From IMG/VR virus record IMGVR_UViG_2634166457_000020, positions 1 to 39,240 of that record: a stretch of DNA of 39,240 nt; one strand, 5' to 3'. Made by a program: the position numbers and the translations under genes. The DNA comes from a virus. Taxonomy: Duplodnaviria; Heunggongvirae; Uroviricota; Caudoviricetes. This document shows positions 1,450 through 39,240 of the stretch, in pieces. The notes beneath the pieces were generated by a model. The model was not told the origin of the DNA, made no database searches, and saw nothing but the letters and a program-made list of their open reading frames with translations. Positions within the stretch are counted from its first letter, which is position 1; the number at the start of each line of letters is the position of its first letter.

Positions 1450-2093
1450 GCTGCACGCTCCCGCCCCTGGTTGTCTGTTGGTGACAGCGGAGCATTGCTG
1501 AATGCATTTGTTAATCTGGCAATATCCAACGCGTATCCAGGGTGTAGTTGCACTGCCGGGTCTTCGCACTGATTACCCCAAACATCGAAGCCATGAGACG
1601 ACTGGCGGGCGAACAGTTCAATGCGAGAAACATCGCCTAACAATTGCACAAGTTTTTCACGCACGACATCTGGTTTTCTTGAATGCTCAAGCCGCGGTGC
1701 GGTAAATGACTGAACGATCCCTGCATTAATGCGCGTAGGTAGTTTTCCCTTTACCGCAAACAGGCAATCTTCACTATTGGCGCGAGTCATGTGTCCCATA
1801 CCCATAACCAGTTTATCTGGTTGTCGACTACCACATTTTATCCACGTGAATCCCTTCATGGTCATCAGACGGAATCCCCAGGCTTCAACAACTTTTAGTG
1901 CTTCGAGTGGTTGTGTTGGCACCCACCACATTGCCAACAGACAGTTTTCATCGGACAAATCCCACACAGGAAGGCGGCAGATATCCAGCACACTCATAAC
2001 CGGATATTTAAAACCAGCGCCGCGATTACCATCTGCGGCTTTGTCCCGGTATACCCAGGGTGGATCTGCATAGATTAGCGTGTATTTTTTCAT
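1446..2093 (-). CDS. MT-A70 family (beta-class) N6-adenine DNA methyltransferase, 215 aa
   Basis: N-terminal catalytic motif IYADPPWVY (DPPW) characteristic of MT-A70/N6-adenine methyltransferases; start taken at MKKYTLIYADPPW (ATG 2093..2091), which overlaps the upstream gene stop (2092..2090) as ATGA. Confidence 0.8.
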   Translation of the reverse strand: MKKYTLIYADPPWVYRDKAADGNRGAGFKYPVMSVLDICRLPVWDLSDENCLLAMWWVPTQPLEALKVVEAWGFRLMTMKGFTWIKCGSRQPDKLVMGMGHMTRANSEDCLFAVKGKLPTRINAGIVQSFTAPRLEHSRKPDVVREKLVQLLGDVSRIELFARQSSHGFDVWGNQCEDPAVQLHPGYALDIARLTNAFSNAPLSPTDNQGRERAA

Positions 2094-3193
2094 TGTTCTG
2101 CTCCCAGACTTCCTTTGGTAAAAGCTTGTATCAGCCTGTTTGCTGCCGCTTTCTGTGCTGCTACATTGGCAATAACTGATAGTTTTTCCTGGCTTGCTTT
2201 CGTGCAGATCCCAACCCAATTATCCATTAGGAAAAAATTCTCTCTTTCTGCGAAGTCAGTATTTGCACATAATGTTTCAATCATTGAAATTATTTCTTTT
2301 ATTGAGTGATTAACCATCATTTGCTGAACAGCATAACCAAAAGCGTTAATCATCACTGCATGAAACTGGATATATTCTCTTTTGTATTCTGATTGCTTTG
2401 TACCATGGCGAATTGCTTCTAGTTGTGTAAGACATAACCATGATTCCCATACTGACTCGATGTTACCAATTTCTAGTTTTTTTCCATTATGAATACAAAA
2501 TTTTGATGTTGAATCACTTAATGCTTTGAAACTCACCCACATGTTTGACTTTGACGGAACAACGTTGTGCTCGAAGTCAGTGACTTCTGCAAAAGTGTCA
2601 TGTTGCGACAGGAAAGACACCATTTCTTGGGCAACATCGTTTCGTCCGTCATACGCCATATTAATTGCTGCAGATGGTTTTGAAACATTATTATTAATGT
2701 CAGAAAAGAACTGCTGACGCGCCTTCAAAGGAAGGTTATGCGTAAGTATAAGAGGAATCATAATTGTTTCACCATAATTACGGCAGAACTCAGCTAATCC
2801 TGCAGCACGATGCTGTCCATCAAATAATTTTATTTCTGCATCCATAGGAAATCTAGCTAAACCGACATTAGTATTTCCAATCTCATGGAACTCTATTTCT
2901 GAGTTACAATTTCCGACCAATGGTGGAACAATAAATGGTTCCTTTTTCTCGTAAGCGTTGACTAAATATTGATAAAACTTTTTTACCCTGGTTGGATTAA
3001 TTTCACGTTGAGAACGTTCAAGGGTACTTCCCGTATTGTCGGTTGCCAATACTCTCGATAGTGCTCTTGCTGGTACTGTCATCATAAGTATTACAGTGCT
3101 TCCCTGCGTTCCTCGTGATGCGGGAAATTCAAAGAAATAATCGCCTACCTTGCTCATGATATTACCTTTTATATTATTGTTTTGTTTATTCAT
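2090..3193 (-). CDS. DGQHR-domain protein (DndB-like / ParB-like DNA-binding), 367 aa (or 355 aa if start is ATG at 3157)
   Basis: Contains the FDGQHRAAGL motif defining the DGQHR domain family; tight coupling to the downstream methyltransferase. Confidence 0.7.
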   Translation of the reverse strand: MNKQNNNIKGNIMSKVGDYFFEFPASRGTQGSTVILMMTVPARALSRVLATDNTGSTLERSQREINPTRVKKFYQYLVNAYEKKEPFIVPPLVGNCNSEIEFHEIGNTNVGLARFPMDAEIKLFDGQHRAAGLAEFCRNYGETIMIPLILTHNLPLKARQQFFSDINNNVSKPSAAINMAYDGRNDVAQEMVSFLSQHDTFAEVTDFEHNVVPSKSNMWVSFKALSDSTSKFCIHNGKKLEIGNIESVWESWLCLTQLEAIRHGTKQSEYKREYIQFHAVMINAFGYAVQQMMVNHSIKEIISMIETLCANTDFAERENFFLMDNWVGICTKASQEKLSVIANVAAQKAAANRLIQAFTKGSLGAEQ

Positions 3194-3452
3194 AAACCAC
3201 CCCGCAACATCCTATGCCGCTATAGTCGCCACGGCGAAGGCCGTTACCTTTTGTGATACATTGGTCCCTGCGAACCGCGATCCTTGCACGCTCAACATCA
3301 CCAGAAGCAACATCCATACACTGAAGCCAAAGGTGAGCGGCAATGCGGAACTGCCCTTTTTTCTCTCTTTCAATCGCGCGTTTTTCGATCTCTATCGCCG
3401 CAGGAGTAACGGCGACAATCTTTGACGGACTGCGCATTGAAACCTTGTTCAT
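3186..3452 (-). CDS. Small hypothetical protein, first gene of cargo operon (about 83-99 aa; start uncertain: 3485, 3452 or 3437)
   Basis: ORF 3186..3485 on minus strand; its stop overlaps the start region of the DGQHR gene; no recognisable motif. Confidence 0.35.
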   Translation of the reverse strand: MNKVSMRSPSKIVAVTPAAIEIEKRAIEREKKGQFRIAAHLWLQCMDVASGDVERARIAVRRDQCITKGNGLRRGDYSGIGCCGVVYE

Positions 3453-3594
3453 GTGATATTTTTCAAGTCGGCTTAACTTTCTCACTTAATCCAACCCTCT
3501 CTGAAAATTAATGCCAGCAGATAAAGCCATGCTGAAACAGAGGCCAGAAATAAGTACCATCCTGACCATTTGCTCCAGTGCCTTAGCAGCACAC

Positions 3595-4924: not shown

Positions 4925-5824
4925 TTACTTCATTCTGAAGACGCGTTGTGTCGTTGTTGTTTTGAATTTTTCGAATAACTCAGGGTGTACTGACTGGAAT
5001 AGCTTCTGGTCGAATCTGTTGCTGATCTGAGATTTCCATGTGCAGAGCGGCTTTCCGTCCAGGGTCAGGACTGAGTGCTCTTGCATGTACATCTTCAGCT
5101 TCTCTTCTGATATAGCTATTTCTTCTTCCAGTGATTTTCTGCGTGACTTCATGTCTCGTAGATCGTTGAATAGTGCGAGTGCCTTTCCGTCAGCCTCGAT
5201 ACTTGTCCCGGCCTCTTTCTCAAACATCAGCGATACATCGCTTACGCTGGTAGCTTCCGGCGGGTTAAGATTTTTCACTCGGTCCCAGAAAGCGATTTCT
5301 TTTTCTAAGATCGCCTGGATAGTTTCTTCATCACGCTCAACCCGATAGATTCGGAAGTCGTCGCCACCGATAAGCACACCGAAAACGCATACCTGTTTGT
5401 TTGTAACCATCAACCCGTGCATGGCCTGGGCCGTGTAATGCACAGGAATTGCATCTGTCTGGATTTCTCCCCATTCTTTGGCTTTGAACGGACTAACTGT
5501 TTTTATCTCAATGTTCTCGCCTGACGCTGCTTCTGCATCGATCTCAGCTGCAATAAAATCGTAATCACGGTGGATATAGCGGTTTCCGCGATGAACGATT
5601 TCCATCCCTGTTTCCTCAGAAAGCAGGTCTATTACGTATGGCTCCATACGCTGGCCACGCGTGAAAACTTTCTGCTTGCTTGGGTCTACTGGTTTGACAC
5701 GTGGCTGGACCTTATCCAGATAAACCTCAAGCGGGGTGCGCCATGGGCTAATTCCAAGAATCCCTGCAACATCGCTTCCTCCGATGTATTTTGTTCTATC
5801 CATGATTCCAGCGTTCCGCATCAT
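4925..5824 (-). CDS. YqaJ-like (lambda-exonuclease-like, PD-(D/E)XK) recombination exonuclease, 299 aa
   Basis: N-terminal RTKYIGGSDVAGILGISPWRTPLEVY matches the YqaJ viral recombinase exonuclease pattern; start ATG (5824..5822) overlaps the upstream gene stop (5823..5821) as ATGA. Confidence 0.75.
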   Translation of the reverse strand: MMRNAGIMDRTKYIGGSDVAGILGISPWRTPLEVYLDKVQPRVKPVDPSKQKVFTRGQRMEPYVIDLLSEETGMEIVHRGNRYIHRDYDFIAAEIDAEAASGENIEIKTVSPFKAKEWGEIQTDAIPVHYTAQAMHGLMVTNKQVCVFGVLIGGDDFRIYRVERDEETIQAILEKEIAFWDRVKNLNPPEATSVSDVSLMFEKEAGTSIEADGKALALFNDLRDMKSRRKSLEEEIAISEEKLKMYMQEHSVLTLDGKPLCTWKSQISNRFDQKLFQSVHPELFEKFKTTTTQRVFRMK

Positions 5825-6120
5825 GCCGCGTCCCTCTGCCCATCAAGCTGATCAGCCAGATCCCAGCGGGCGATAATTGCCATTGCCTCGCGCCGGTAGG
5901 CATCCATTAGTTCTTCGAACTCAGGGCTGTCTTTAGCGGCCTCCAGTACTTCCTGGCGAACGCCTTTAACTGTTACAACGTCGAAAGTTGATGCCAGTTG
6001 ATGAAGCCGGATACTCTCAATCAGTTCAACTTGTCGGTCATATAGCTGTTCTGACAGGCGGTAGTCCTTGTCGAATGCCAGCATGATTTTTTGAAGATTT
6101 TTCTGCTGATTAACGTTCAT
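5821..6120 (-). CDS. Hypothetical early protein (about 99 aa, start MNVNQQ)
   Basis: ORF in the leftward early operon; start chosen at second Met because the upstream small ORF stop lies at 6123-6125. Confidence 0.45.
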   Translation of the reverse strand: MNVNQQKNLQKIMLAFDKDYRLSEQLYDRQVELIESIRLHQLASTFDVVTVKGVRQEVLEAAKDSPEFEELMDAYRREAMAIIARWDLADQLDGQRDAA

Positions 6121-6122
6121 TA

Positions 6123-6275
6123 TCAGCCCTCCCATATCTCGTTATCGTTGGCCACATCGCGAGCTTCTTTGCTGACGAAAGCCCACTTAATGCCTTCCTG
6201 TAAGGTGCGGAACTTCCAGCTCATGAATCCGCATGCAGTAACGCAGTACCAACCGTTGATGATTTTCCACTGCAT
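6123..6275 (-). CDS. Small W/C-rich protein (50 aa, MQWKIINGWYCVTACGF...), first gene of leftward early operon; not in the supplied ORF track
   Basis: Manually translated from the minus strand; GAGG Shine-Dalgarno about 10 nt upstream; directly downstream of operator cluster 6282-6371. Confidence 0.4.
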   Translation of the reverse strand: MQWKIINGWYCVTACGFMSWKFRTLQEGIKWAFVSKEARDVANDNEIWEG

Positions 6276-6428: not shown

Positions 6429-7013
6429 TTATTGTTTGTTTTTTTCGTTCTGGTTGATGACAAATTCAATGTAACTTTCGATCTTTGCTTTCTCGGTTTC
6501 GGGTAACAATGCGTAGCGCGAGCGATCATAGTTGATGGTCGCAGGGTCGTGCGGGTGAATCAGTAATTCATAGCCGTGACGCCCGAATGCGGATGCAACA
6601 TTCTCCAGGGTGGAAATGGAAACGCTGACCTCATTGTTTAACAGGCGGCTGATTGTCACCTGGGCGACGCCGGATGCGCGGTGAAGTTTTCCCTGAGTTG
6701 AAAGGTCGCGGCTTTCGCTCATCCAGCGTTCCAGGTTGTGAGCCGCCAGCTGACCAATGTCGCTTGGGCCGACAGGCTGAAAACCTTCCTGAGAAAGCGA
6801 GCGATCGATATCAAGCCAGTTACGGGGTTTATTGGCGGCAGCTTCAATTTTTCGCGCAACCTGGTCGCCGATAACCTTCTTGCCAAGAGCCCAGCGGTTT
6901 ACCAGATTTGCCTGAGTTCCAAGTTTTTCTGCCATCCGCGTCTGAACACCATTGAATTCACGGTCGATCAAGTCGTTGAGATTTTGCCTGCGGACGTCCT
7001 GGATACTTTTCAT
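6429..7013 (-). CDS. Phage repressor-like protein with two tandem XRE-type helix-turn-helix domains, 194 aa; no S24 peptidase domain
   Basis: HTH 1 TRMAEKLGTQANLVNRWALGKK; HTH 2 KLHRASGVAQVTISRLLNNEVSVSISTLENVASAFG; located between two operator clusters and divergent from a Cro-like gene. Confidence 0.65.
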   Translation of the reverse strand: MKSIQDVRRQNLNDLIDREFNGVQTRMAEKLGTQANLVNRWALGKKVIGDQVARKIEAAANKPRNWLDIDRSLSQEGFQPVGPSDIGQLAAHNLERWMSESRDLSTQGKLHRASGVAQVTISRLLNNEVSVSISTLENVASAFGRHGYELLIHPHDPATINYDRSRYALLPETEKAKIESYIEFVINQNEKNKQ

Positions 7014-7398: not shown

Positions 7399-7420
7399 TA
7401 TCCAGCCACAACCCTCTGTA

Positions 7421-7442
7421 GACCGCCATCCGGCGGTCTTTT
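7421..7442 (+). terminator. Rho-independent terminator after Cro-like gene (GACCGCC-ATCC-GGCGGTC plus TTTT)
   Basis: 7-bp GC-rich stem followed by T-run. Confidence 0.6.
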
Positions 7443-7512: not shown

Positions 7513-7749
7513 ATGACCGTAATCCCAATACTAATAACAGGGCTTACCATGGAAATCATTACACGTATTGATGCCGCAAAGCGCGGACTTAAACGCTACT
7601 ACACCGGAAAACCATGTAAGCACGGACATGACAGTGAACGCTGGGTTTACAACGGACACTGTGTTGAGTGCACCATGGAATCAAACCGTCGTATCAGGGC
7701 AGAGATTAAGCAGATCATGATTAATTCCTCCCCACAACATTCAAGCTGA
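7513..7749 (+). CDS. Small Cys/His-rich (zinc-finger-like) protein at the cII position; start uncertain (7486 TTG, 7513 ATG or 7549 ATG)
   Basis: Motif CKHGHDSERWVYNGHCVEC; preceded by a GCACC-TTAAA-GGTAA site at 7454-7468. Confidence 0.4.
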   Translation: MTVIPILITGLTMEIITRIDAAKRGLKRYYTGKPCKHGHDSERWVYNGHCVECTMESNRRIRAEIKQIMINSSPQHSS

Positions 7750-9362: not shown

Positions 9363-9479
9363 TACCAGCGCGATAGCGCATTTTTTTACGTCTACATAAT
9401 TACCTGTTAGGTAATAAAATGTTCTAAAATCTATTGATTTCGTGTCTTATGTGGTTTTTAATTACCTCAGGGGTAAATC

Positions 9480-12197: not shown

Positions 12198-12471
12198 CCT
12201 GCAACTTGCCGTCAAAGGTGAATACTTCGATGCCATGATTCGCGGGGAGAAAACAGAAGAATATCGCCTGTGTAATGACTACTGGAATAAGCGAATTATG
12301 TTCAGGGAGTATGACCGCCTGATTATCACAAAGGGATACCCGAAGCGCGACGATTCCAGCCGCAGAATTGATATTCCGTATGGCGGATATGAAATCAAAA
12401 CAATCACACATCCGCACTTCGGCGATAAACCGGTAAAGGTGTTCGCGATAAAGGTGAATATTGATGGCTAA
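12190..12471 (+). CDS. Hypothetical small protein, about 93 aa (GTG start with GGAGG SD)
   Basis: ORF 12118..12471 trimmed to GTG at 12190 preceded by ggagg. Confidence 0.4.
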   Translation: MANLQLAVKGEYFDAMIRGEKTEEYRLCNDYWNKRIMFREYDRLIITKGYPKRDDSSRRIDIPYGGYEIKTITHPHFGDKPVKVFAIKVNIDG

Positions 12472-12802
12472 ATCAGCAGCAGAGCGCAAAGCCGCTCAGA
12501 GAGCCAGACAAGCTGAATCCGGTGTGCGTAAGCTGGAAATTATGCTTGATGCTCAGGAAATTGAAATGCTGGAGCGTAACTGTGCCACGCGTCGCCCCGG
12601 GCGTGCGCCTTACGAATTTGGTGAGTATATAGCGTTACTGATCCGCCAGGATGATGCACGCGTGCGTGGGCGTATGAAATCGATCAGCAGAAAACGTTGC
12701 GGTAAGTGCGGAGAGAGAGTTCCTGTGAATTCATGCCCGTGTAATGGTGACTCGCAATGCTGGGTGACTAAAGGCTGGCATGAAACGAAATTAATAGTGT
12801 GA
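12464..12802 (+). CDS. Putative DNA-binding regulator: ribbon-helix-helix-like N-terminus plus C-terminal zinc ribbon, 112 aa
   Basis: RKLEIMLDAQEIEMLE resembles an RHH strand-helix; C-terminal CGKCGERVPVNSCPCNG is a four-Cys zinc-ribbon pattern; stop abuts palindrome AGTGTGACATGTCAC. Confidence 0.45.
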   Translation: MAKSAAERKAAQRARQAESGVRKLEIMLDAQEIEMLERNCATRRPGRAPYEFGEYIALLIRQDDARVRGRMKSISRKRCGKCGERVPVNSCPCNGDSQCWVTKGWHETKLIV

Positions 12803-12819
12803 CATGTCACGAAGGTGTT

Positions 12820-13032
12820 ATGCCAAAAATACGCTACGACCTTGAAGATATGAGAGATAACTCAGCAAATTTTCCGAAAGAGGTTAAATTTCTTATGAAT
12901 AAGTATGGTTGCGCCAGGAGGGATATAGTTATCGACAGTCAGCACCCTTGCGGTGAGGATGTAATTTTCATTCGCGGTAAATGGGAAGGGTATCTTGACG
13001 AGAGTTTTTACGATGAATTTGATGGACTTTGA
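12820..13032 (+). CDS. Hypothetical small protein, 70 aa
   Basis: ORF between the palindrome at 12796-12810 and the terminator at 13038-13063. Confidence 0.35.
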   Translation: MPKIRYDLEDMRDNSANFPKEVKFLMNKYGCARRDIVIDSQHPCGEDVIFIRGKWEGYLDESFYDEFDGL

Positions 13033-13037
13033 ATACT

Positions 13038-13063
13038 GCCGCCAACTATGGCGGCTTTATTTT
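13038..13063 (+). terminator. Rho-independent terminator upstream of terminase genes (GCCGCC-AACTAT-GGCGGC plus TTTATTTT)
   Basis: 6-bp GC stem followed by T-rich tract. Confidence 0.6.
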
Positions 13064-13097
13064 GCATGGTACTATTACCACAACGGTAACTATTACC

Positions 13098-13703
13098 ATG
13101 GTGGTTATGATGCCTGCTGAACCTAAAACCTATAAACGCAAATCAACGCAATTTAAGCCACTAACAGCAATGCAGGAGGCTTATTGCCAGTCATACATCA
13201 AAACGCCTGAAAACCAGACTCAGGCTGCGATTAACGCAGGATTCTCCCCAAATACAGCGGCAGTTAAAGCCAGTGTCATGATGCGCGATGAACGCATTCA
13301 GAAACGGATTGCCGAGTTGATGGAGGAGCGCAACAAACGAATGCGCGTCAGTGCTGATTACGTTCTCATGCGCCTGGTGGAGATCGACCAGATGGACGTG
13401 ATCGACATCCTCAACGACGATGGGAGCCTTAAACCAATCCGTGAGTGGCCGAAAATCTGGCGCACTACGCTTAGTGGCTTTGATCTGTCGTCGACCATCA
13501 TGAACATGAACGAGGATTCGATAGAGACAATCCTCAAAAAAATTAAATGGCCTGACAAGGTGAAGAACCTTGAGCTGATTGGTAAGCATGTTGATGTCAA
13601 CGCGTTCAAAGAACGTCTGGATGTTAATGTGAATGTGACAATTGCTGATCGCATAGCAGCAGCCAGGAAGCGACTCAAAGAACGTCAGGATGGTAATCAG
13701 TGA
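13098..13703 (+). CDS. Terminase small subunit, about 201 aa; start uncertain (13098, 13107 or 13110)
   Basis: Sequence YCQSYIKTPENQTQAAINAGFSPNTAAVKASVMMRDERIQKRIAEL resembles the HTH-type terminase small subunit family; stop overlaps the large subunit start (GTGA). Confidence 0.7.
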   Translation: MVVMMPAEPKTYKRKSTQFKPLTAMQEAYCQSYIKTPENQTQAAINAGFSPNTAAVKASVMMRDERIQKRIAELMEERNKRMRVSADYVLMRLVEIDQMDVIDILNDDGSLKPIREWPKIWRTTLSGFDLSSTIMNMNEDSIETILKKIKWPDKVKNLELIGKHVDVNAFKERLDVNVNVTIADRIAAARKRLKERQDGNQ

Positions 13704-15990: not shown

Positions 15991-16025
15991 GATTATACCT
16001 TTAAGGTAATTTGCGGTCATCAAGC

Positions 16026-16212: not shown

Positions 16213-16289
16213 TGGCGTGGCATGCAGGATTCGAACCTGCGACCAACCGCTTAGAAGGCGGTTGCTCTGTCCAACTGAGCTAATGCCAC
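16213..16289 (-). tRNA. tRNA-Arg (anticodon UCU, reads AGA), 77 nt including encoded CCA
   Basis: Manually folded cloverleaf: acceptor GUGGCAU/AUGCCAC, D-stem GCUC/GAGC, anticodon stem ACCGC/GCGGU with loop CUUCUAA, T-stem GCAGG/CCUGC with loop UUCGAAU, discriminator G, CCA. Confidence 0.85.
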
Positions 16290-30227: not shown

Positions 30228-32702
30228 ATGAGACAGGAATGTATACAAGCGGTTCAGCAGGCGGCGCAGCGCATGTTAACGGCGCGAGAAATACAGAACA
30301 TTGAAGACCGCATTTATCGAAATATGCGCTCCATTGCTCGTGATGACCCGATGTCGTGGCGACAACTTTCCGAATCAGAGCGGTTGTATCGTGCAGCACA
30401 ATTGGCATCTGAAGAATTACAGCGAGAAGCGGCATTAAAGAAACGTCGTGTGACCCTCACTATAGCCGCACGTCAGAGATTGGATAAATTTATCAATAGC
30501 TATCAAGGGGCTGATGGGAAACTTGGCGCTCTTAACCGTACTATTGCTTTTAATGCAGACGGTAAATCTAATTTCCTCTCTGTTGAATCCAGAACAAAAG
30601 CCACCCGTGATTATGCATTGAGTCAATTGCAGGAGGCATTCGAAGCAGTTGATCCTCGCTTTTTTGGTCTGTTTGAAGATGAAGCGGGCGTACGTGACCT
30701 GGTATATGAAATGCGGGGGCAAAATACTGGCAATGCAAAAGCAAGAAAAGGTGCTAAGGCGTGGAGAGAAGTTACAGAGCTGCTGCGCCGCCGGTTTAAT
30801 GATGCTGGTGGGGACATTGGCTATCTCGAAAACTGGGGGATCCCTCAACATCATTCTATGGAAAAGGTTGGGGCGGTATCAAAGGATAAGTGGGTTAGCG
30901 ATGTTATAGGTAAGCTGGATCGCAAATATTATACCCGAGCCGATGGACAACTGATGAACGATGCCGAGTTGTCTGCATTTCTTGGAGAGGCTTATAACAC
31001 GATCGCTACTGGTGGGCTGAATAAGCTTACTGATACCGGAATGCGAATTTCCGGCGCACGTGCTAACCGTGGTAATGCATCACGACAGATACATTTCAAA
31101 GATGCAGATTCCTATCTCCAATATCAACAACTTTATGGCGATCGCTCTCTATGGGAAATCATGGTCGGTCACCTGGAAGGTATCAGTAAAGATATTGCTC
31201 TGGTGGAAACATATGGCCCAAACCCCGATCATGTTTTCCGCTCCCTTCTTGATCAGGTGAAGGCAGAAACGGCAACAGCTAACCCGAGTAAAACTGGTAG
31301 CGTCGAGCGCCTGGCGAACAACACAGAGAACCTGTACAACTTTATTTCCGGAAAGACACAGCCTGTAGCGAATCCGCACATCGCGAGATGGTCTGACAAT
31401 ATCCGCAACTGGCTGGTTGCCAGCCGACTAGGATCCGCGTTGCTGTCATCGTTTTCTGATCTCGGAACCATGTATCTGTCTGCGAAGGTGTTAAACCTTC
31501 CAATGAACCAGTTATTCCGCAACCAGCTTGAAGCTATGGACCCAACTAACCGTACTGAGCTTGCGCGGGCGCGCCGCGCTGGTCTGGCGATGGAGTCTCT
31601 ACTTGGCAGCGTTAACCGCTGGGCGATGGATAATATGGGGCCTTCTGTGTCTCGTTGGGCGGCAACGGCGGTAATGCGTGCCAGTGGGCTTACAGCATGG
31701 TCAGATGCGCACAAGCGCGCCTATGGCGTAACCATGATGGGAAGCTTGGGAGAAGTAGTGTCACGGACACCAGACCTTCGTAGCCTCGATGACTCTGATT
31801 TTCGTATCCTGAAAAGCAAAGGGATTACTGACATAGACTGGAGCGTATGGAAGCTGGCGCAACAGGAGGACTGGGGGAACGGTAATAATACGATGCTGAC
31901 ACCGGAAAGCATTATGCGTATCCCTGATTCAGCAGTTAAACATCTTGGTGAGCCTGAACGCGTGAAATTTGAGGCAATGCGTAAACTGCTCGGTGCCGTA
32001 ACTGAAGAAGTTGATATGGCTGTTATTACACCTGGAGCACGTGAGCAACTGATAACCGGTTCTGGTATTCAGCGTGGAACATGGAAAGGTGAATTAACGA
32101 GAAGTGTTTTCCTGTTTAAATCGTTCCCTATCTCGGTTGTTATGCGTCACTGGTCACGCGCTATGGGTATGCCGTCTGCTGGTGGGCGTGCGGCATATAT
32201 TGCGACGTTTATTGCCAGTACGACCATTCTTGGCGCTTTGTCGCAGCAACTTAACGACCTTGCGTCTGGTCGTAATCCTCGAGAGATGATAGGAGAAGAT
32301 GCCGCAAAATTCTGGCTTGGTGCTCTACTGAAAGGTGGTGGTCTTGGCCTTTACGGTGACTTTTTATTGTCAGATCACACTAGGTACGGAAGCGGTGCGC
32401 TGGCATCAATGCTTGGTCCGGTAGCCGGTCTGGTTGATGACGTAGTGAAGATAGCTCAGGGCATACCACTAAATGCTGTGGAAGGGAAAAACGAGCAGAC
32501 TGGTGGTGATCTGGTGAAACTTGGGAAAGGGCTGATGCCAGGTGCGAATCTCTGGTACTTGAAGGCAGCTCTTGATCACATGATCTTTAACCAGATGCAG
32601 GAGTATTTTTCACCAGGCTATTTGCGAAAAATGGAACAACGTTCGAAGAAAGAGTTTAACCAGACATACTGGTGGCGACCACAGGATGTCACTCCGCAAT
32701 AA
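30228..32702 (+). CDS. Internal virion/ejection protein, 824 aa
   Basis: Last large gene of the internal-core block before the tailspike. Confidence 0.5.
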   Translation: MRQECIQAVQQAAQRMLTAREIQNIEDRIYRNMRSIARDDPMSWRQLSESERLYRAAQLASEELQREAALKKRRVTLTIAARQRLDKFINSYQGADGKLGALNRTIAFNADGKSNFLSVESRTKATRDYALSQLQEAFEAVDPRFFGLFEDEAGVRDLVYEMRGQNTGNAKARKGAKAWREVTELLRRRFNDAGGDIGYLENWGIPQHHSMEKVGAVSKDKWVSDVIGKLDRKYYTRADGQLMNDAELSAFLGEAYNTIATGGLNKLTDTGMRISGARANRGNASRQIHFKDADSYLQYQQLYGDRSLWEIMVGHLEGISKDIALVETYGPNPDHVFRSLLDQVKAETATANPSKTGSVERLANNTENLYNFISGKTQPVANPHIARWSDNIRNWLVASRLGSALLSSFSDLGTMYLSAKVLNLPMNQLFRNQLEAMDPTNRTELARARRAGLAMESLLGSVNRWAMDNMGPSVSRWAATAVMRASGLTAWSDAHKRAYGVTMMGSLGEVVSRTPDLRSLDDSDFRILKSKGITDIDWSVWKLAQQEDWGNGNNTMLTPESIMRIPDSAVKHLGEPERVKFEAMRKLLGAVTEEVDMAVITPGAREQLITGSGIQRGTWKGELTRSVFLFKSFPISVVMRHWSRAMGMPSAGGRAAYIATFIASTTILGALSQQLNDLASGRNPREMIGEDAAKFWLGALLKGGGLGLYGDFLLSDHTRYGSGALASMLGPVAGLVDDVVKIAQGIPLNAVEGKNEQTGGDLVKLGKGLMPGANLWYLKAALDHMIFNQMQEYFSPGYLRKMEQRSKKEFNQTYWWRPQDVTPQ

Positions 32703-32852: not shown

Positions 32853-32872
32853 CTTGAGTGTGACATGTCACA

Positions 32873-32897
32873 GGCCGCTTTCGCGGCCTTTAATTTT
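32873..32897 (+). terminator. Rho-independent terminator ending the late structural operon (GGCCGC-TTTC-GCGGCC plus TTTAATTTT)
   Basis: 6-bp GC stem followed by T-rich tract; lies between convergent genes. Confidence 0.65.
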
Positions 32898-33153
32898 ACC
32901 GGATTTGTTTTCGTAATTGTTCGGCACAATAGTCGAGATGCGTTTGCAGATCCCGCATAGACATCTGTGAGTTGGTTACGTAGTTGATCAGTGCAGTCAG
33001 TTCGGCAAGTGGGCCATCGACATTGAATCCATCTTTATCGAGATCCCGGAGTAATTTCATCAAGTGCGATCCCTCCACTAGTGATCTGACGCCTCCAGGT
33101 GTGTGAATCCTTTCGGTAAATCCGTCTTCCAGTGGATAGTGATACTGCTGCAT
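32896..33153 (-). CDS. Hypothetical antisense small protein, about 85 aa (start MQQYHYPLEDGF)
   Basis: Internal Met of ORF 32896..33387 chosen because the upstream part overlaps the tailspike promoter region and the ATG at 33153 has a GGAGAAG SD. Confidence 0.35.
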   Translation of the reverse strand: MQQYHYPLEDGFTERIHTPGGVRSLVEGSHLMKLLRDLDKDGFNVDGPLAELTALINYVTNSQMSMRDLQTHLDYCAEQLRKQIR

Positions 33154-33349
33154 CTTATCTTCTCCATGCAATAACTGTATGAATATACAGTACCAAATAA
33201 TTTGTTTGCTATCCAGCACGTTTTGTAAATCACCTGAAAGGTAATATCTGTTCGTATCGATGATGTTTCTATCCCATATATGGTTTTTAAGGTAATAAAA
33301 TGGCCGGATATGCGGCGCAACGGGTGCTGCGACTATCTGGAGATTTAAC

Positions 33350-37252: not shown

Positions 37253-37436
37253 TTAATCCTTGGCTCATTATCTTTAGTTTAATAAACAAAATTTTATTGA
37301 TGAATTTCGCAAGTGTATCACCCAAAAGGTAATTTTGGTAGGAGTTATTCTGGGTAATTCAAATCATATGTGGTTTATTGTGTATGATATGATCACCAAC
37401 TAAGGGGGTCTTTATGCACGGTAACAGGTGGTTTTT

Positions 37437-37841
37437 ATGTCAGTTCAGCTAACCAGTGAGTCTTTAAATCAGTGGCTTAGCGTGAGTTCTCTTGCTGCAG
37501 TGATAGCAGGTGTCCCTCCAGAGGTGGCTTTGGGAGCTTTGGCGGGGGCGGTAATTTTTGTTACCTCCGCCATCGAATACCCCATTCATCGCCGTGTTCT
37601 CCTGTCGATGCTCAGTTTCCTCTGCGGCCTTCTATTTTACAAACCAACAGCATCCATCCTTATCGGTATCGCTAGCCTGATACCTACCATCACGCAGGAC
37701 TCTTTCGAGAAAGGGATCGTCTTCTCTGCTGGCGCATTTGTGTCGGCAATTGTCGCTGTGCGAATTGGCATCTGGCTCTATCACCGTTCCGATAATCCAC
37801 GCGAGTTAATTCCGGGGAGAAAAGACGATGGTAACTCATGA
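37437..37841 (+). CDS. Putative holin (multi-pass membrane protein), about 134 aa
   Basis: 3-4 predicted transmembrane segments; first gene of cluster ending in endolysin and spanins; ATG 37437 with AGGTGG SD. Confidence 0.5.
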   Translation: MSVQLTSESLNQWLSVSSLAAVIAGVPPEVALGALAGAVIFVTSAIEYPIHRRVLLSMLSFLCGLLFYKPTASILIGIASLIPTITQDSFEKGIVFSAGAFVSAIVAVRIGIWLYHRSDNPRELIPGRKDDGNS

Positions 37842-38136
37842 TTTTTTTTTGCTTATCACCAATGCAGCTATCTGTACTGGCATAGCAGTTCGCGTTGTCA
37901 CTTTCCAGCGTAACGGATCTCAACACCGAAGATGGGGGGGCTGGCTGGCTTATTTCCTGATTGTTGCTACGGCCAGTATTCCTGTTCGTGTCGTCTATGC
38001 AATCTGGTTACGCACGCCAATAGCTGTGGATTTATCTGAGGTCATTATCAATGCTGTCATGCTTGCTGCGGTTATTAAAACTCGCGGTAACGTCGTACAG
38101 ATTTTCAAAATAACGAGGTCTAAACATGGAGATTAA
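37828..38136 (+). CDS. Second small membrane protein of lysis cassette (holin or antiholin candidate), 102 aa
   Basis: 2-3 predicted transmembrane segments; overlaps neighbours on both sides. Confidence 0.45.
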
Positions 38137-38755
38137 ACAATTCCAGCGAGCTGCTGGTGTTAGCGAGGCGCTGGCCGCACGCTGGTTCTCGCATATAACT
38201 TCTGCGATGAAAGAGTTTGGTATCAGCAAACCCGAAGATCAGGCAATGTTTATTGCTCAGGTCGGGCATGAGTCTGGGGGCTTCACCCGGTTGCAGGAGA
38301 ATTTTAACTACAGCGTCACCGGACTGGCTAACTTTGTTCGGACAGGACGTCTCACTCAGGGACAAGCCAACGCATTGGGGCGTCGCGCAGGTGAACCACC
38401 ATTGCCACTTGAGCGACAGCGCGCAATCGCCAATTTGGTGTACAGCAAACGTATGGGGAACAATGCTCCTTGTGATGGCTGGAATTACCGTGGGCGCGGA
38501 CTTATCCAGATTACCGGTTTGAATAACTATCGTGACTGCGGAAACGGCATGAAAGTTGATCTGCTGGAGAATCCTGAACTGTTGGCGCAGGACGAATATG
38601 CGGCTCGTAGCGCGGCGTGGTTCTTCTCCAGCAAAGGCTGCATGAAGTATACCGGAGATATTGCACGTGTAACTCTGATTATCAATGGTGGCAGGAATGG
38701 CATCGACGACCGGCGTGCGCGGTACGTCACTGCCAGTAAGGTGCTGGCGGTATGA
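38126..38755 (+). CDS. Endolysin, glycoside hydrolase family 19 (chitinase-like lysozyme), 209 aa
   Basis: Motifs [12 protein letters not shown] and [16 protein letters not shown] typical of GH19-type phage endolysins. Confidence 0.8.
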
Positions 38756-39240
38756 TCCTGGCATTCGTAAAAGCATACCGGAAACAGTTGTTTATCGTGG
38801 CGATGCTTGTTGTTCTGGTCATATCCTTAGTTGTTGCCTGGAATGTACATGGCGGTCGTCAGTACGACGCTGGGTATGCGCAGGCGAAGGAAGATCAGAA
38901 ACAGGCTGATGATAAGTTAAGGTCACAGCGTGAGCAGGAGAAAACACAAATTGAACGTGAAGCACAATTCCGTATCGATGCGGCGCGTGCTGATGCTGAG
39001 TATGCTAATACCGCTGCTGACAGCATGCGCGCCGAGCTTGACAAAACCAAGCGACTCGCCGAACACTATACCGGATCTTTCCCCCCAGGCACGCCAGCCA
39101 GCAAGGTCATCGGTGTGCTCGCCGACATGCTTGAAGAAAGCAACCGAGTTTACAATGCAACAGCAGTTGAGGCTGAAAAGTATCGTATTGCAGGGGAAAT
39201 CTGCGAGCAGCAATACGACTCATTGAAGAAGCAAAAATAG
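38752..39240 (+). CDS. Rz-like inner-membrane spanin (i-spanin), 162 aa
   Basis: N-terminal transmembrane helix [18 protein letters not shown] followed by coiled-coil region; ATGA overlap with endolysin stop; contains an embedded +1 frame lipoprotein ORF. Confidence 0.7.
38978..39226 (+). CDS. Rz1-like outer-membrane lipoprotein spanin (o-spanin) embedded in Rz, about 82 aa
   Basis: Signal peptide with lipobox LLTAC followed by proline-rich mature region; entirely inside the Rz gene in +1 frame. Confidence 0.55.
   Translation: MRRVLMLSMLIPLLTACAPSLTKPSDSPNTIPDLSPQARQPARSSVCSPTCLKKATEFTMQQQLRLKSIVLQGKSASSNTTH

Follow-up and report, generated by a model that had tools for sequence, protein, structure and literature searches.

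An RHH protein with a zinc knuckle and a palindrome at its own stop codon: a candidate regulator and operator in Uetakeviruses and other temperate phages

The early-late junction of a Uetakevirus prophage

The stretch of DNA analysed here in full, 39,240 bp in length and referred to below as the window, is a complete Uetakevirus (epsilon15/phiV10-type) prophage of E. coli. It shares 97% to 98% identity over most of its length with phiv142-3, PAS61, TL-2011b, and ZX5, and phiV10 is also similar to it 3' of position 13,012. The segment from 12464 to 13110 is 100% identical to a prophage in E. coli strains HL15 and SF10, in whose assemblies this segment also lies inside a separate 41-kb record, one per assembly, and such phages are common as prophages, the region being present in 637 of 5426 complete E. 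coli genomes. The gene order in the window is integrase, early-left genes, repressor, cro-like gene, replication genes, accessory genes, the gene for a 112-aa protein that is the subject of this study, terS, and terL, followed by the portal gene through the injection protein genes, the tailspike gene, and the lysis genes. The original prediction had treated the placement of the lysis genes at the far end as unusual; they are indeed located there, but judged by gene order this is the standard Uetakevirus layout and no anomaly, and in the circular phage the lysis genes are the final late genes. An Rfam scan of the window returned a single match, a tRNA.

The features at the junction between the early and the late genes are listed in Table 1. 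The elements predicted for this region, namely the 112-aa ORF, the palindrome, a 70-aa ORF, the terminator at 13038-13063, and terS, were all confirmed in the sequence. The 112-aa ORF begins with an ATG at 12464, with an 8-nt overlap with the stop of the upstream ASCH-like ORF. The 70-aa ORF, which has the Shine-Dalgarno sequence GAAGG and lies as an insert between palindrome and terminator, is present as predicted but is not a fixed part of the junction, being found in 23 and absent from 47 of 70 close relatives, defined as loci with terS downstream. PAS61 retains just an 8-codon remnant of it, and in Klebsiella phage ST512-KPC3phi13.3 the slot is taken by another small gene, which has a perfect LexA box. 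Because the 70-aa ORF is optional and is replaced in the Klebsiella relative, the gap between palindrome and terminator is an insertion site for cargo genes. The terminator that follows (-16.2 kcal/mol, z = -3.75) is kept in epsilon15, PAT1, PAS61, and the Klebsiella relative. Palindrome and terS promoter region are ~90 nt, ~110 nt, or, with the insert, ~290 nt apart.

Table 1. Features of the window that bear on the 112-aa protein and its candidate sites
Feature	Position	Strand	Remarks
Repressor gene	6429-7013	minus	
112-aa RHH and zinc-knuckle protein gene	12464..12802	+	PHROG 536; last conserved gene of early-right operon
Palindrome GTGACATGTCAC, site 1, candidate operator	12799..12810	.	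Overlaps stop of 112-aa ORF
70-aa ORF, optional cargo gene	12820..13032	+	PHROG 1541, E 6e-39
Intrinsic terminator of early-right operon	13038..13063	+	GCCGCCA-ACTA-TGGCGGC then TTTATTTT
Two immunity-type operator-like sites, TTACCACAACGGTAA and TTACCATGGTGGTTA	13075..13107	+	Immediately 5' of terS
terS, small terminase subunit, first late gene	13110..13703	+	Pfam Terminase_2, E 1e-29; start approximate
Second exact palindrome copy, site 3 of the genus	32860..32871	.	After last injection-protein operon; abuts terminator
Intrinsic terminator	32873..32897	+	GGCCGC-TTTC-GCGGCC and T-tract; directly after second palindrome; faces 3' end of antirepressor gene
Antirepressor Ant homologue (SPC32H), ORF	32896-33153	minus	E 1.5e-45; LexA box ~33173-33192
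Lysis genes	37428-39240		By comparison with annotated phage PAS61

A second kind of site marks the transcription units of this prophage. The window has 12 occurrences of the motif TTACC-N5-GGTAA, where chance would give 0.71. Pairs are found in the PL and PR regions, at 9400/9462, and at 13075/13093 before terS; the portal operon is preceded by sites at 15995 and 16612, the tailspike gene by one at 33230, and the lysis genes by one at 37318. Among PAS61, epsilon15, PAT1, and the Klebsiella relative, the TTACC and GGTAA half-sites are kept and the spacers vary. The equivalent sites are annotated as repressor-binding sites in the epsilon15 GenBank record, and the repressor of the window is homologous to the solved SPC32H Rep protein (E 2e-41). 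To judge from these sites, the late units each appear to have a separate promoter region under Rep control as well as a separate terminator, and in relatives the ends of the late units usually also bear a copy of the palindrome described below. Since the late units possess operator-bearing promoter regions of their own, the architecture does not require a dedicated late activator. The -35 elements of the late promoter regions are poor, which hints that an activator may be needed at these promoters, and comparison of four late leaders showed no shared RNA structure.

The absence of a Q gene ahead of the terminase genes, on which the original prediction was built, is borne out by searches of the window with Pfam and PHROGs, in which Q was not detected, and the early-left and early-right ORFs gave no match to families of the Q, Ogr/Delta, Mor/C, or RinA type in these two collections. 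Two other ORFs were considered as late regulators and set aside, the PerC-like ORF at 3186-3482, which belongs to a host-virulence-type activator family, and the 66-aa zinc-finger ORF at 7549-7749 (PHROG 1081), neither of which could be linked to the late genes.

The 112-aa protein and its family

The 112-aa protein matched the PHROG 536 profile with an E value of 1.1e-53 over residues 1-111, i.e., it is a full-length member of the family. PHROG 536 carries the label "transcriptional regulator", for which no evidence is given, and other annotations read "hypothetical protein". The protein corresponds to epsilon15 gp49 and phiV10 p55, whose records describe hypothetical proteins similar to N15 gp46, and its homologues include N15 gp46 itself, phiKO2 gp45, and ZF40 gp22. 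Its identity is 75% to epsilon15 gp49, 65% to the ZF40 homologue, and 34% to phiKO2 gp45. The family is modest, with 148 clusters at 50% identity among 1.8 billion representatives. Pfam and NCBIfam hold no family for it, sequence searches of the PDB gave no solved relative, and sequence and profile searches of Pfam, NCBIfam, and the PDB for known regulators returned nothing significant. A fold search of BFVD gave a fragment from this same family and nothing else, the fusion proteins within the family (P0269, P0290, and others) contained no informative domains, and a literature search found no paper, experimental studies included, on the PHROG 536 protein.

The structure prediction that had been proposed as a check was carried out with AlphaFold on 58 diverse family members, and the resulting model has a pLDDT of 91 and matches proteins of the ribbon-helix-helix (RHH; Arc/MetJ/CopG) superfamily. 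It consists of a basic helix (residues 5-19), an extended segment (21-28), a helix (30-42), a long helix (52-75), a cysteine-rich knuckle (79-99), and a final helix (100-108), in which the strand at ~21-28, the helix at 30-42, and the helix starting at 52 form the strand-helix-helix core of the RHH fold. Conservation across the family is concentrated in R8, K9, Q12, and R13 of the basic helix, in an E-Y-I-x-x-L-I-R helix, and in the cysteines C79, C82, C91 (or C93), and C99, with the spacing CxxC-x8-C(xC)-x5-C. The original description as an RHH protein with a four-cysteine zinc ribbon thus holds in substance, except that there are no two CxxC pairs. Sub-threshold matches to the RHH_5, RHH_1, and RepB-RCR_reg models came from just 2 to 3 of the 58 family members, and the NCBIfam LexA-regulated protein model PRK11675, which we take to be YbfE, matched the 112-aa protein weakly (E 0.059). 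As modelled, the protein is an RHH domain preceded by a basic N-terminal helix and followed by a putative Cys4-type zinc knuckle. Because it accompanies a 12-bp palindrome through many unrelated phages (see below), we take it to be, almost certainly, a DNA-binding regulator that acts at operon junctions.

With the RHH repressors of phages and plasmids (P22 Arc, Mnt, CopG, omega, and the ParD/MazE-type antitoxins) the 112-aa protein has in common the fold, the small size, a short palindromic candidate operator, and, in several lineages, repressor-type positions of this candidate site, but it differs from them in the added basic N-terminal helix, in a helix B that extends into the zinc knuckle, in the final helix, in lacking an above-threshold Pfam RHH match, and in a candidate operator that in many phages lies at its own stop codon and not at its promoter. 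Like P2 Ogr and P4 Delta it is a small cysteine-containing phage regulator, but it gave no Ogr_Delta Pfam match, its cysteine spacing of CxxC-x8-C(xC)-x5-C differs from the CX2C-X22-CX4C of Ogr_Delta, it has an RHH domain, which Ogr does not have, and its homologues in P2-like phages do not occupy the ogr position. Residues 48-109 matched the TraR/DksA-type proteins TraR and YbiI weakly, sharing a long helix, CxxCG..(I/L/V)P, and G...C, but the second CxxC pair of DksA/TraR (CxxC-N17-CxxC) is missing and there was no zf-dskA_traR Pfam match. The protein is thus a candidate RHH regulator with an unusual basic helix and zinc knuckle and with a candidate operator in its own stop codon, and its family is spread over many types of temperate phage.

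Association of the palindrome with the gene

The 12-bp palindrome GTGACATGTCAC at the end of the gene is exact and includes the TGA stop codon of the 112-aa ORF. It is no chance match, since the motif is conserved in phages both related and unrelated and the 15-mer AGTGTGACATGTCAC at this site recurs identically at 32857-32871. The counterpart of this second site in PAS61 lies at 32674. A third copy follows terL in 52 of the 70 related loci, where the terminator comes first and the palindrome second; this copy has been lost in the window, in which other minus-strand ORFs follow terL. Uetakevirus genomes contain two or three sites each, and the sites flank the terS-terL pair.

The results showed that the association between gene and palindrome extends well beyond this genus. 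GTGAC-N2-GTCAC was found within ~6 kb in 212 of 221 homologue loci in comparison to 10 of 1105 shuffled loci (~1%), and the linkage was seen in at least eight phage lineages. In the converse search, 32 of 120 viral contig pieces, chosen solely for the presence of TGTGACATGTCACA, encoded a homologue in the same piece. The GTGAC half-sites are invariant and the central 2 bp differ between lineages. That the palindrome accompanies the gene across unrelated phages is, to judge from these searches, new here, and a literature search for the motif strings found no paper. The percentage of palindrome sites within 75 nt of an intrinsic terminator was 41% in comparison to 7% for random positions; this excess is driven by the Uetakevirus clade, and terminator adjacency was not retained as a general rule.

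The placement of the sites differs among the lineages. On the stop codon of the homologue lie GTGACATGTCAC in Vibrio prophage L351, the palindromes of epsilon15, PAT1, and the Klebsiella phage, and CGTGACTGGTCACG in 51 of 51 N15-like loci, nearly all of which have a second copy upstream (0 to ~6 kb off, ~5.7 kb apart); in phiKO2 the second copy is ~5.9 kb upstream, inside repA. The Pectobacterium myovirus ZF40 has TGTGACATGTCACA just after the stop codon of its homologue. Vibrio phages have two sites ~2.7 kb apart, and in Vibrio phage K303 GTGACACGTCAC is found ~230 nt past the gene and 8 nt ahead of the terS ribosome-binding site. Phages L349/L350, whose protein shows 34% identity, have two copies of TGTGACGCGTCAC in tandem between two convergent genes. 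P2-like Yersinia and Serratia phages, in which the homologue comes after gene A and borders a variable cargo region, have two to three clustered sites 0.5-4.6 kb 3' of the gene, past that region and near a putative cos site; these sites surround and overlap a promoter-like TTGTGA-16-TATAAA, recognised by eye, before an AT-rich cargo gene. Two Aeromonas phages carry a variant with a broken dyad, GTGACCGGACAC, in two to three copies per locus, with a site 13-16 nt 3' of a good sigma-70-type -10 and the promoter-like sequence (e.g., TTGCAC-17-TATGAT or TTGCGC-17-TACTAT, consensus by eye with unmapped starts) heading the operon that contains the gene itself, a placement that has the predicted geometry of an autorepressor.

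Owing to this co-occurrence of gene and motif across lineages, we infer that the palindrome (T)GTGAC-N2-GTCAC(A) is very probably the operator of the 112-aa protein, which would bind it as an RHH dimer. A different possibility is that the palindrome forms an RNA hairpin near the next ribosome-binding site and that the protein regulates translation, as might be expected from the position of the site 2-12 nt ahead of the next Shine-Dalgarno sequence, with no space for a promoter, in four lineages (the window, phiKO2, the Aeromonas phages, and Vibrio K303). However, the predicted fold is weak (-2.9 kcal/mol, z = 0.19) and no better than that of shuffled sequences, the stem is invariant across lineages and shows no covariation, several copies are found in operon ends that are not translated or on the antisense strand of repA, and RHH proteins bind DNA. 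Recognition of DNA and not of an RNA hairpin is indicated because the half-sites are invariant, the spacer varies, and the Aeromonas variant breaks the dyad and with it the pairing, so that the hairpin reading is very improbable. A promoter inside the palindrome, with GTGACA as the -35 element, was also considered and rejected, as by eye the -10-like sequence differs between the E. coli, Salmonella, and Klebsiella forms and the window.

Possible roles at operon boundaries

On the sequence evidence, we tentatively favor a role of the 112-aa protein as a repressor or roadblock at operon boundaries, a reading that is likelier than a Q-like switch though it falls somewhat short of an even chance. 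Made last in the early-right operon, the protein would be present during lytic growth only, and it would occupy the site at 12799, at its own stop codon and the early/late junction, and the site at 32860, at the end of the structural operon and beside the antirepressor gene. The bound protein would block RNA polymerase from crossing operon boundaries or from entering a downstream cargo gene, would thereby back up the adjoining terminators, and would insulate the late units with their Rep-type operators. The absence of Q would then be ascribed to direct control of every late unit by Rep and not to the 112-aa protein. RHH proteins usually act negatively, and for this reason we infer that negative action is the most likely sign of regulation. 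An insulating role would also be preferred to a read-through role because the late units have their own promoters and terminators and usually palindromes at their ends. The Aeromonas and P2-like sites are in repressor-type positions, and those sites that lie within repA or just before the next ribosome-binding site could act solely as an obstacle. On the other hand, the Uetakevirus sites are at the 3' ends of transcription units and not at promoters, to which classical repression does not apply, and a roadblock beside a strong terminator seems redundant. The fixed position of the gene before terS in every Uetakevirus, its position before the holin/terS block in the Q-less Vibrio phages and L349/L350, and the poor -35 elements of the late promoter regions would rather be expected of a late switch.

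Such a switch was the proposal of the original prediction, which had the protein acting as a late-gene activator or antiterminator at the palindrome; comparative evidence strongly supports the palindrome as the site of action, but a role as late activator or antiterminator was not supported by the comparisons made here and is, on balance, less likely than one as repressor or roadblock, and homologues coexist with Q in other phages. In its present form, the protein at the palindrome would admit transcription into terS and the later units, either by suppressing the adjoining terminators or by activating weak downstream promoters, and would thus be a functional but non-homologous analogue of Q, RinA, or Ogr. 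The lambda order of Q, qut, and tR' is mirrored by the gene, its own site, the terminator, and the late genes, and no other late regulator was detected here, including any protein of the Q, Ogr, Mor, or RinA type in the window. In Uetakeviruses the early genes always end with this gene ahead of terS, as they do ahead of the holin/terS block in Vibrio phages and L349/L350, in which no Q was seen. Consistent with a switch are also the proximity of palindrome and terminator (41% vs. 7% within 75 nt, driven by the Uetakeviruses), the lack of good -35 elements in the late promoter regions, and the weak match of the C-terminal half to the RNA-polymerase-binding TraR/YbiI in a PDB profile search (E 0.02). 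However, searches of Pfam, PHROGs, NCBIfam, and the PDB gave no hit of the Q type, the modelled fold is RHH and unlike Q, and further copies of the site lie at other operon ends. As at a lambda-type late promoter, a terminator follows the site; a conserved promoter or pause element was not found there, no -10/-35 pair being conserved with the palindrome by eye in relatives and none found by consensus scan. Moreover, a Q-like gene lies downstream of the ZF40 homologue, which shows 65% identity and has an identical site, and the homologues of the N15-like phages and phiKO2 are located between Q and the annotated late promoter. The distance from palindrome to terS promoter varies, the palindrome comes after the terminator at the site 3' of terL, the operator-bearing promoter of each late unit makes read-through unnecessary, and sites in repA and in transcribed leaders are unlike activator sites. 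In general, this makes the switch possible but rather unlikely.

The half-sites of the palindrome are also those of the host matS site GTGACRNYGTCAC, bound by MatP, itself an RHH protein, and the 112-aa protein might accordingly bridge or mark sites on the phage chromosome (through loops, replication, packaging, or SMC exclusion) without direct control of promoters. The sites are few and dispersed in the Uetakeviruses, N15-like phages, and Vibrio phages, one is within repA, those of Uetakeviruses flank terS-terL, and those of P2-like phages are near the putative cos site in loci where the gene borders the cargo region. The phage site, however, has 12 bp and a 2-bp spacer in comparison to 13 bp and a 3-bp spacer for matS, and the phage-encoded protein, expected in the lytic phase, has neither the four-helix bundle nor the coiled coil of MatP. 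The Aeromonas and P2-like sites, moreover, resemble ordinary operators. A profile comparison with MatP by hhalign gave a probability below 1%, which is not significant, and homology to MatP was rejected, leaving a resemblance in fold and half-sites only. An architectural role is in our estimate quite improbable. A broader proposal, which we consider unlikely, is that the family constitutes a widespread phage module, comprising a regulator gene and an operator in its own stop codon, that would control the passage of polymerase at boundaries and would be a true early-to-late switch in the Q-less Uetakeviruses by a DNA-tethered, non-Q mechanism, or else a phage analogue of MatP that marks DNA with matS-like sites.

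The timing of late genes in epsilon15/phiV10-type phages is a matter for which no explanation was found in the literature, and phiV10 has served in the construction of reporter-phage assays for the detection of E. coli O157:H7. Whether insulator or switch, the protein and its site would define a new operator-regulator module, and, given the matS-like half-sites, it is of interest how GTGAC is recognised by RHH proteins. One small protein and a 12-bp site, conserved in Uetakeviruses and in N15-like, P2-like, ZF40-type, Vibrio, and Aeromonas phages, make up a testable pair.

Probable repressor control and operator-like sites

Prophage induction is probably controlled by an SOS-regulated antirepressor, since the window encodes homologues of both Ant and Rep of phage SPC32H, and an almost perfect LexA box lies ahead of the 85-aa ORF homologous to Ant. 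The operator-like palindrome TTACC-N5-GGTAA was found in 12 copies in the window, in comparison to 0.71 expected by chance, and it marks the start of each transcription unit, including the late units. Equivalent sites are labelled as repressor sites in the epsilon15 record. Together this suggests that Rep, the repressor of the window, controls the late operons directly.

Four of these operators have another conserved motif, (c)ATATGTGGTTT, 46-57 nt to their 3' side. In most cases a GGTAA half-site comes next, and phage PAS61 retains the motif too. A tiny ORF would start with the motif at each copy (MWF.., MWL.., MVF..). The motif was not matched to a -10 or -35 element, and a search for RNA structure common to its copies found none.

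Positions of the features (window coordinates unless another phage or locus is named)
Feature	Position	Strand	Remarks
DndB-like protein	2090-3190	-	PF14072, E 2e-46
PerC-family transcriptional activator homologue	3186-3482	-	Pfam PF06069, E 6e-7; PHROG 868
First genes of PL (early-left promoter region)	5821-6135 and 6123-6275	-	
Rep homologue	6429-7013	-	PDB 5D50_A, E 2e-41
Strong terminator	7420-7439	+	-15 kcal/mol
66-aa ORF	7549-7749	+	PHROG 1081 (epsilon15 gp40); Cys/His-rich motif GKPCKHGH...CVEC
Cargo slot	12811-13037		70-aa ORF
Cargo slot, PAS61	L002 12355-12395		8-codon remnant
Cargo slot, Klebsiella phage ST512-KPC3phi13.3	L346 3790-4230		different 85-aa ORF, own LexA-box promoter
tRNA gene	16216-16289	-	Rfam, 73 bits
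Ant homologue	32896-33153	-	PDB 5D50_E, E 1.5e-45
LexA box	33173-33192		
TTACC-N5-GGTAA	6295, 6357, 7069, 7117, 9400, 9462, 13075, 13093, 15995, 16612, 33230, 37318		
(c)ATATGTGGTTT	9447, 16669, 33276, 37366		weaker copy at 13097
P2-like regions	L159 6575-6600 and 6800-6990; L005 8640-8710		Yersinia/Serratia loci

Early transcription units

Early transcription must read through terminators, because a strong one is located within the early-right operon, directly 3' of the cro-like gene, and more internal terminators are annotated in phiV10; no N-like protein was recognised in the window. The 66-aa ORF at the head of the replication genes, with its Cys/His-rich motif, encodes another small putative zinc protein, which could have a regulatory role. 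In the early-left operon, the PerC-family homologue and the DndB-like gene adjoin each other. In pathogenic E. coli, relatives of PerC are encoded by prophages and activate the LEE virulence locus.

Cargo genes and the palindrome in other phages

The gap between the palindrome (GTGAC-N2-GTCAC) and the terminator is a slot for cargo genes, and its content differs among the three phages listed in the table. A tRNA gene was also observed in the cargo region that separates terL from the portal operon.

In the P2-like Yersinia/Serratia prophages, the homologue of the 112-aa RHH and zinc-knuckle protein is situated 3' of gene A, at the edge of a cargo region that varies and spans 0.5-4.6 kb; an SMC-like ATPase is among its contents in one phage. 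The palindrome cluster is found past a G/C-rich cos-like sequence and ahead of an AT-rich membrane-protein gene adjoining the portal gene. In the N15-like phage phiKO2, a second exact CGTGACTGGTCACG was located within the repA coding region, about 620 bp from the repA start (L348 4164, corresponding to phiKO2 37663), and a second copy upstream was retained in nearly all of the 51 N15-like plasmid prophage loci examined.
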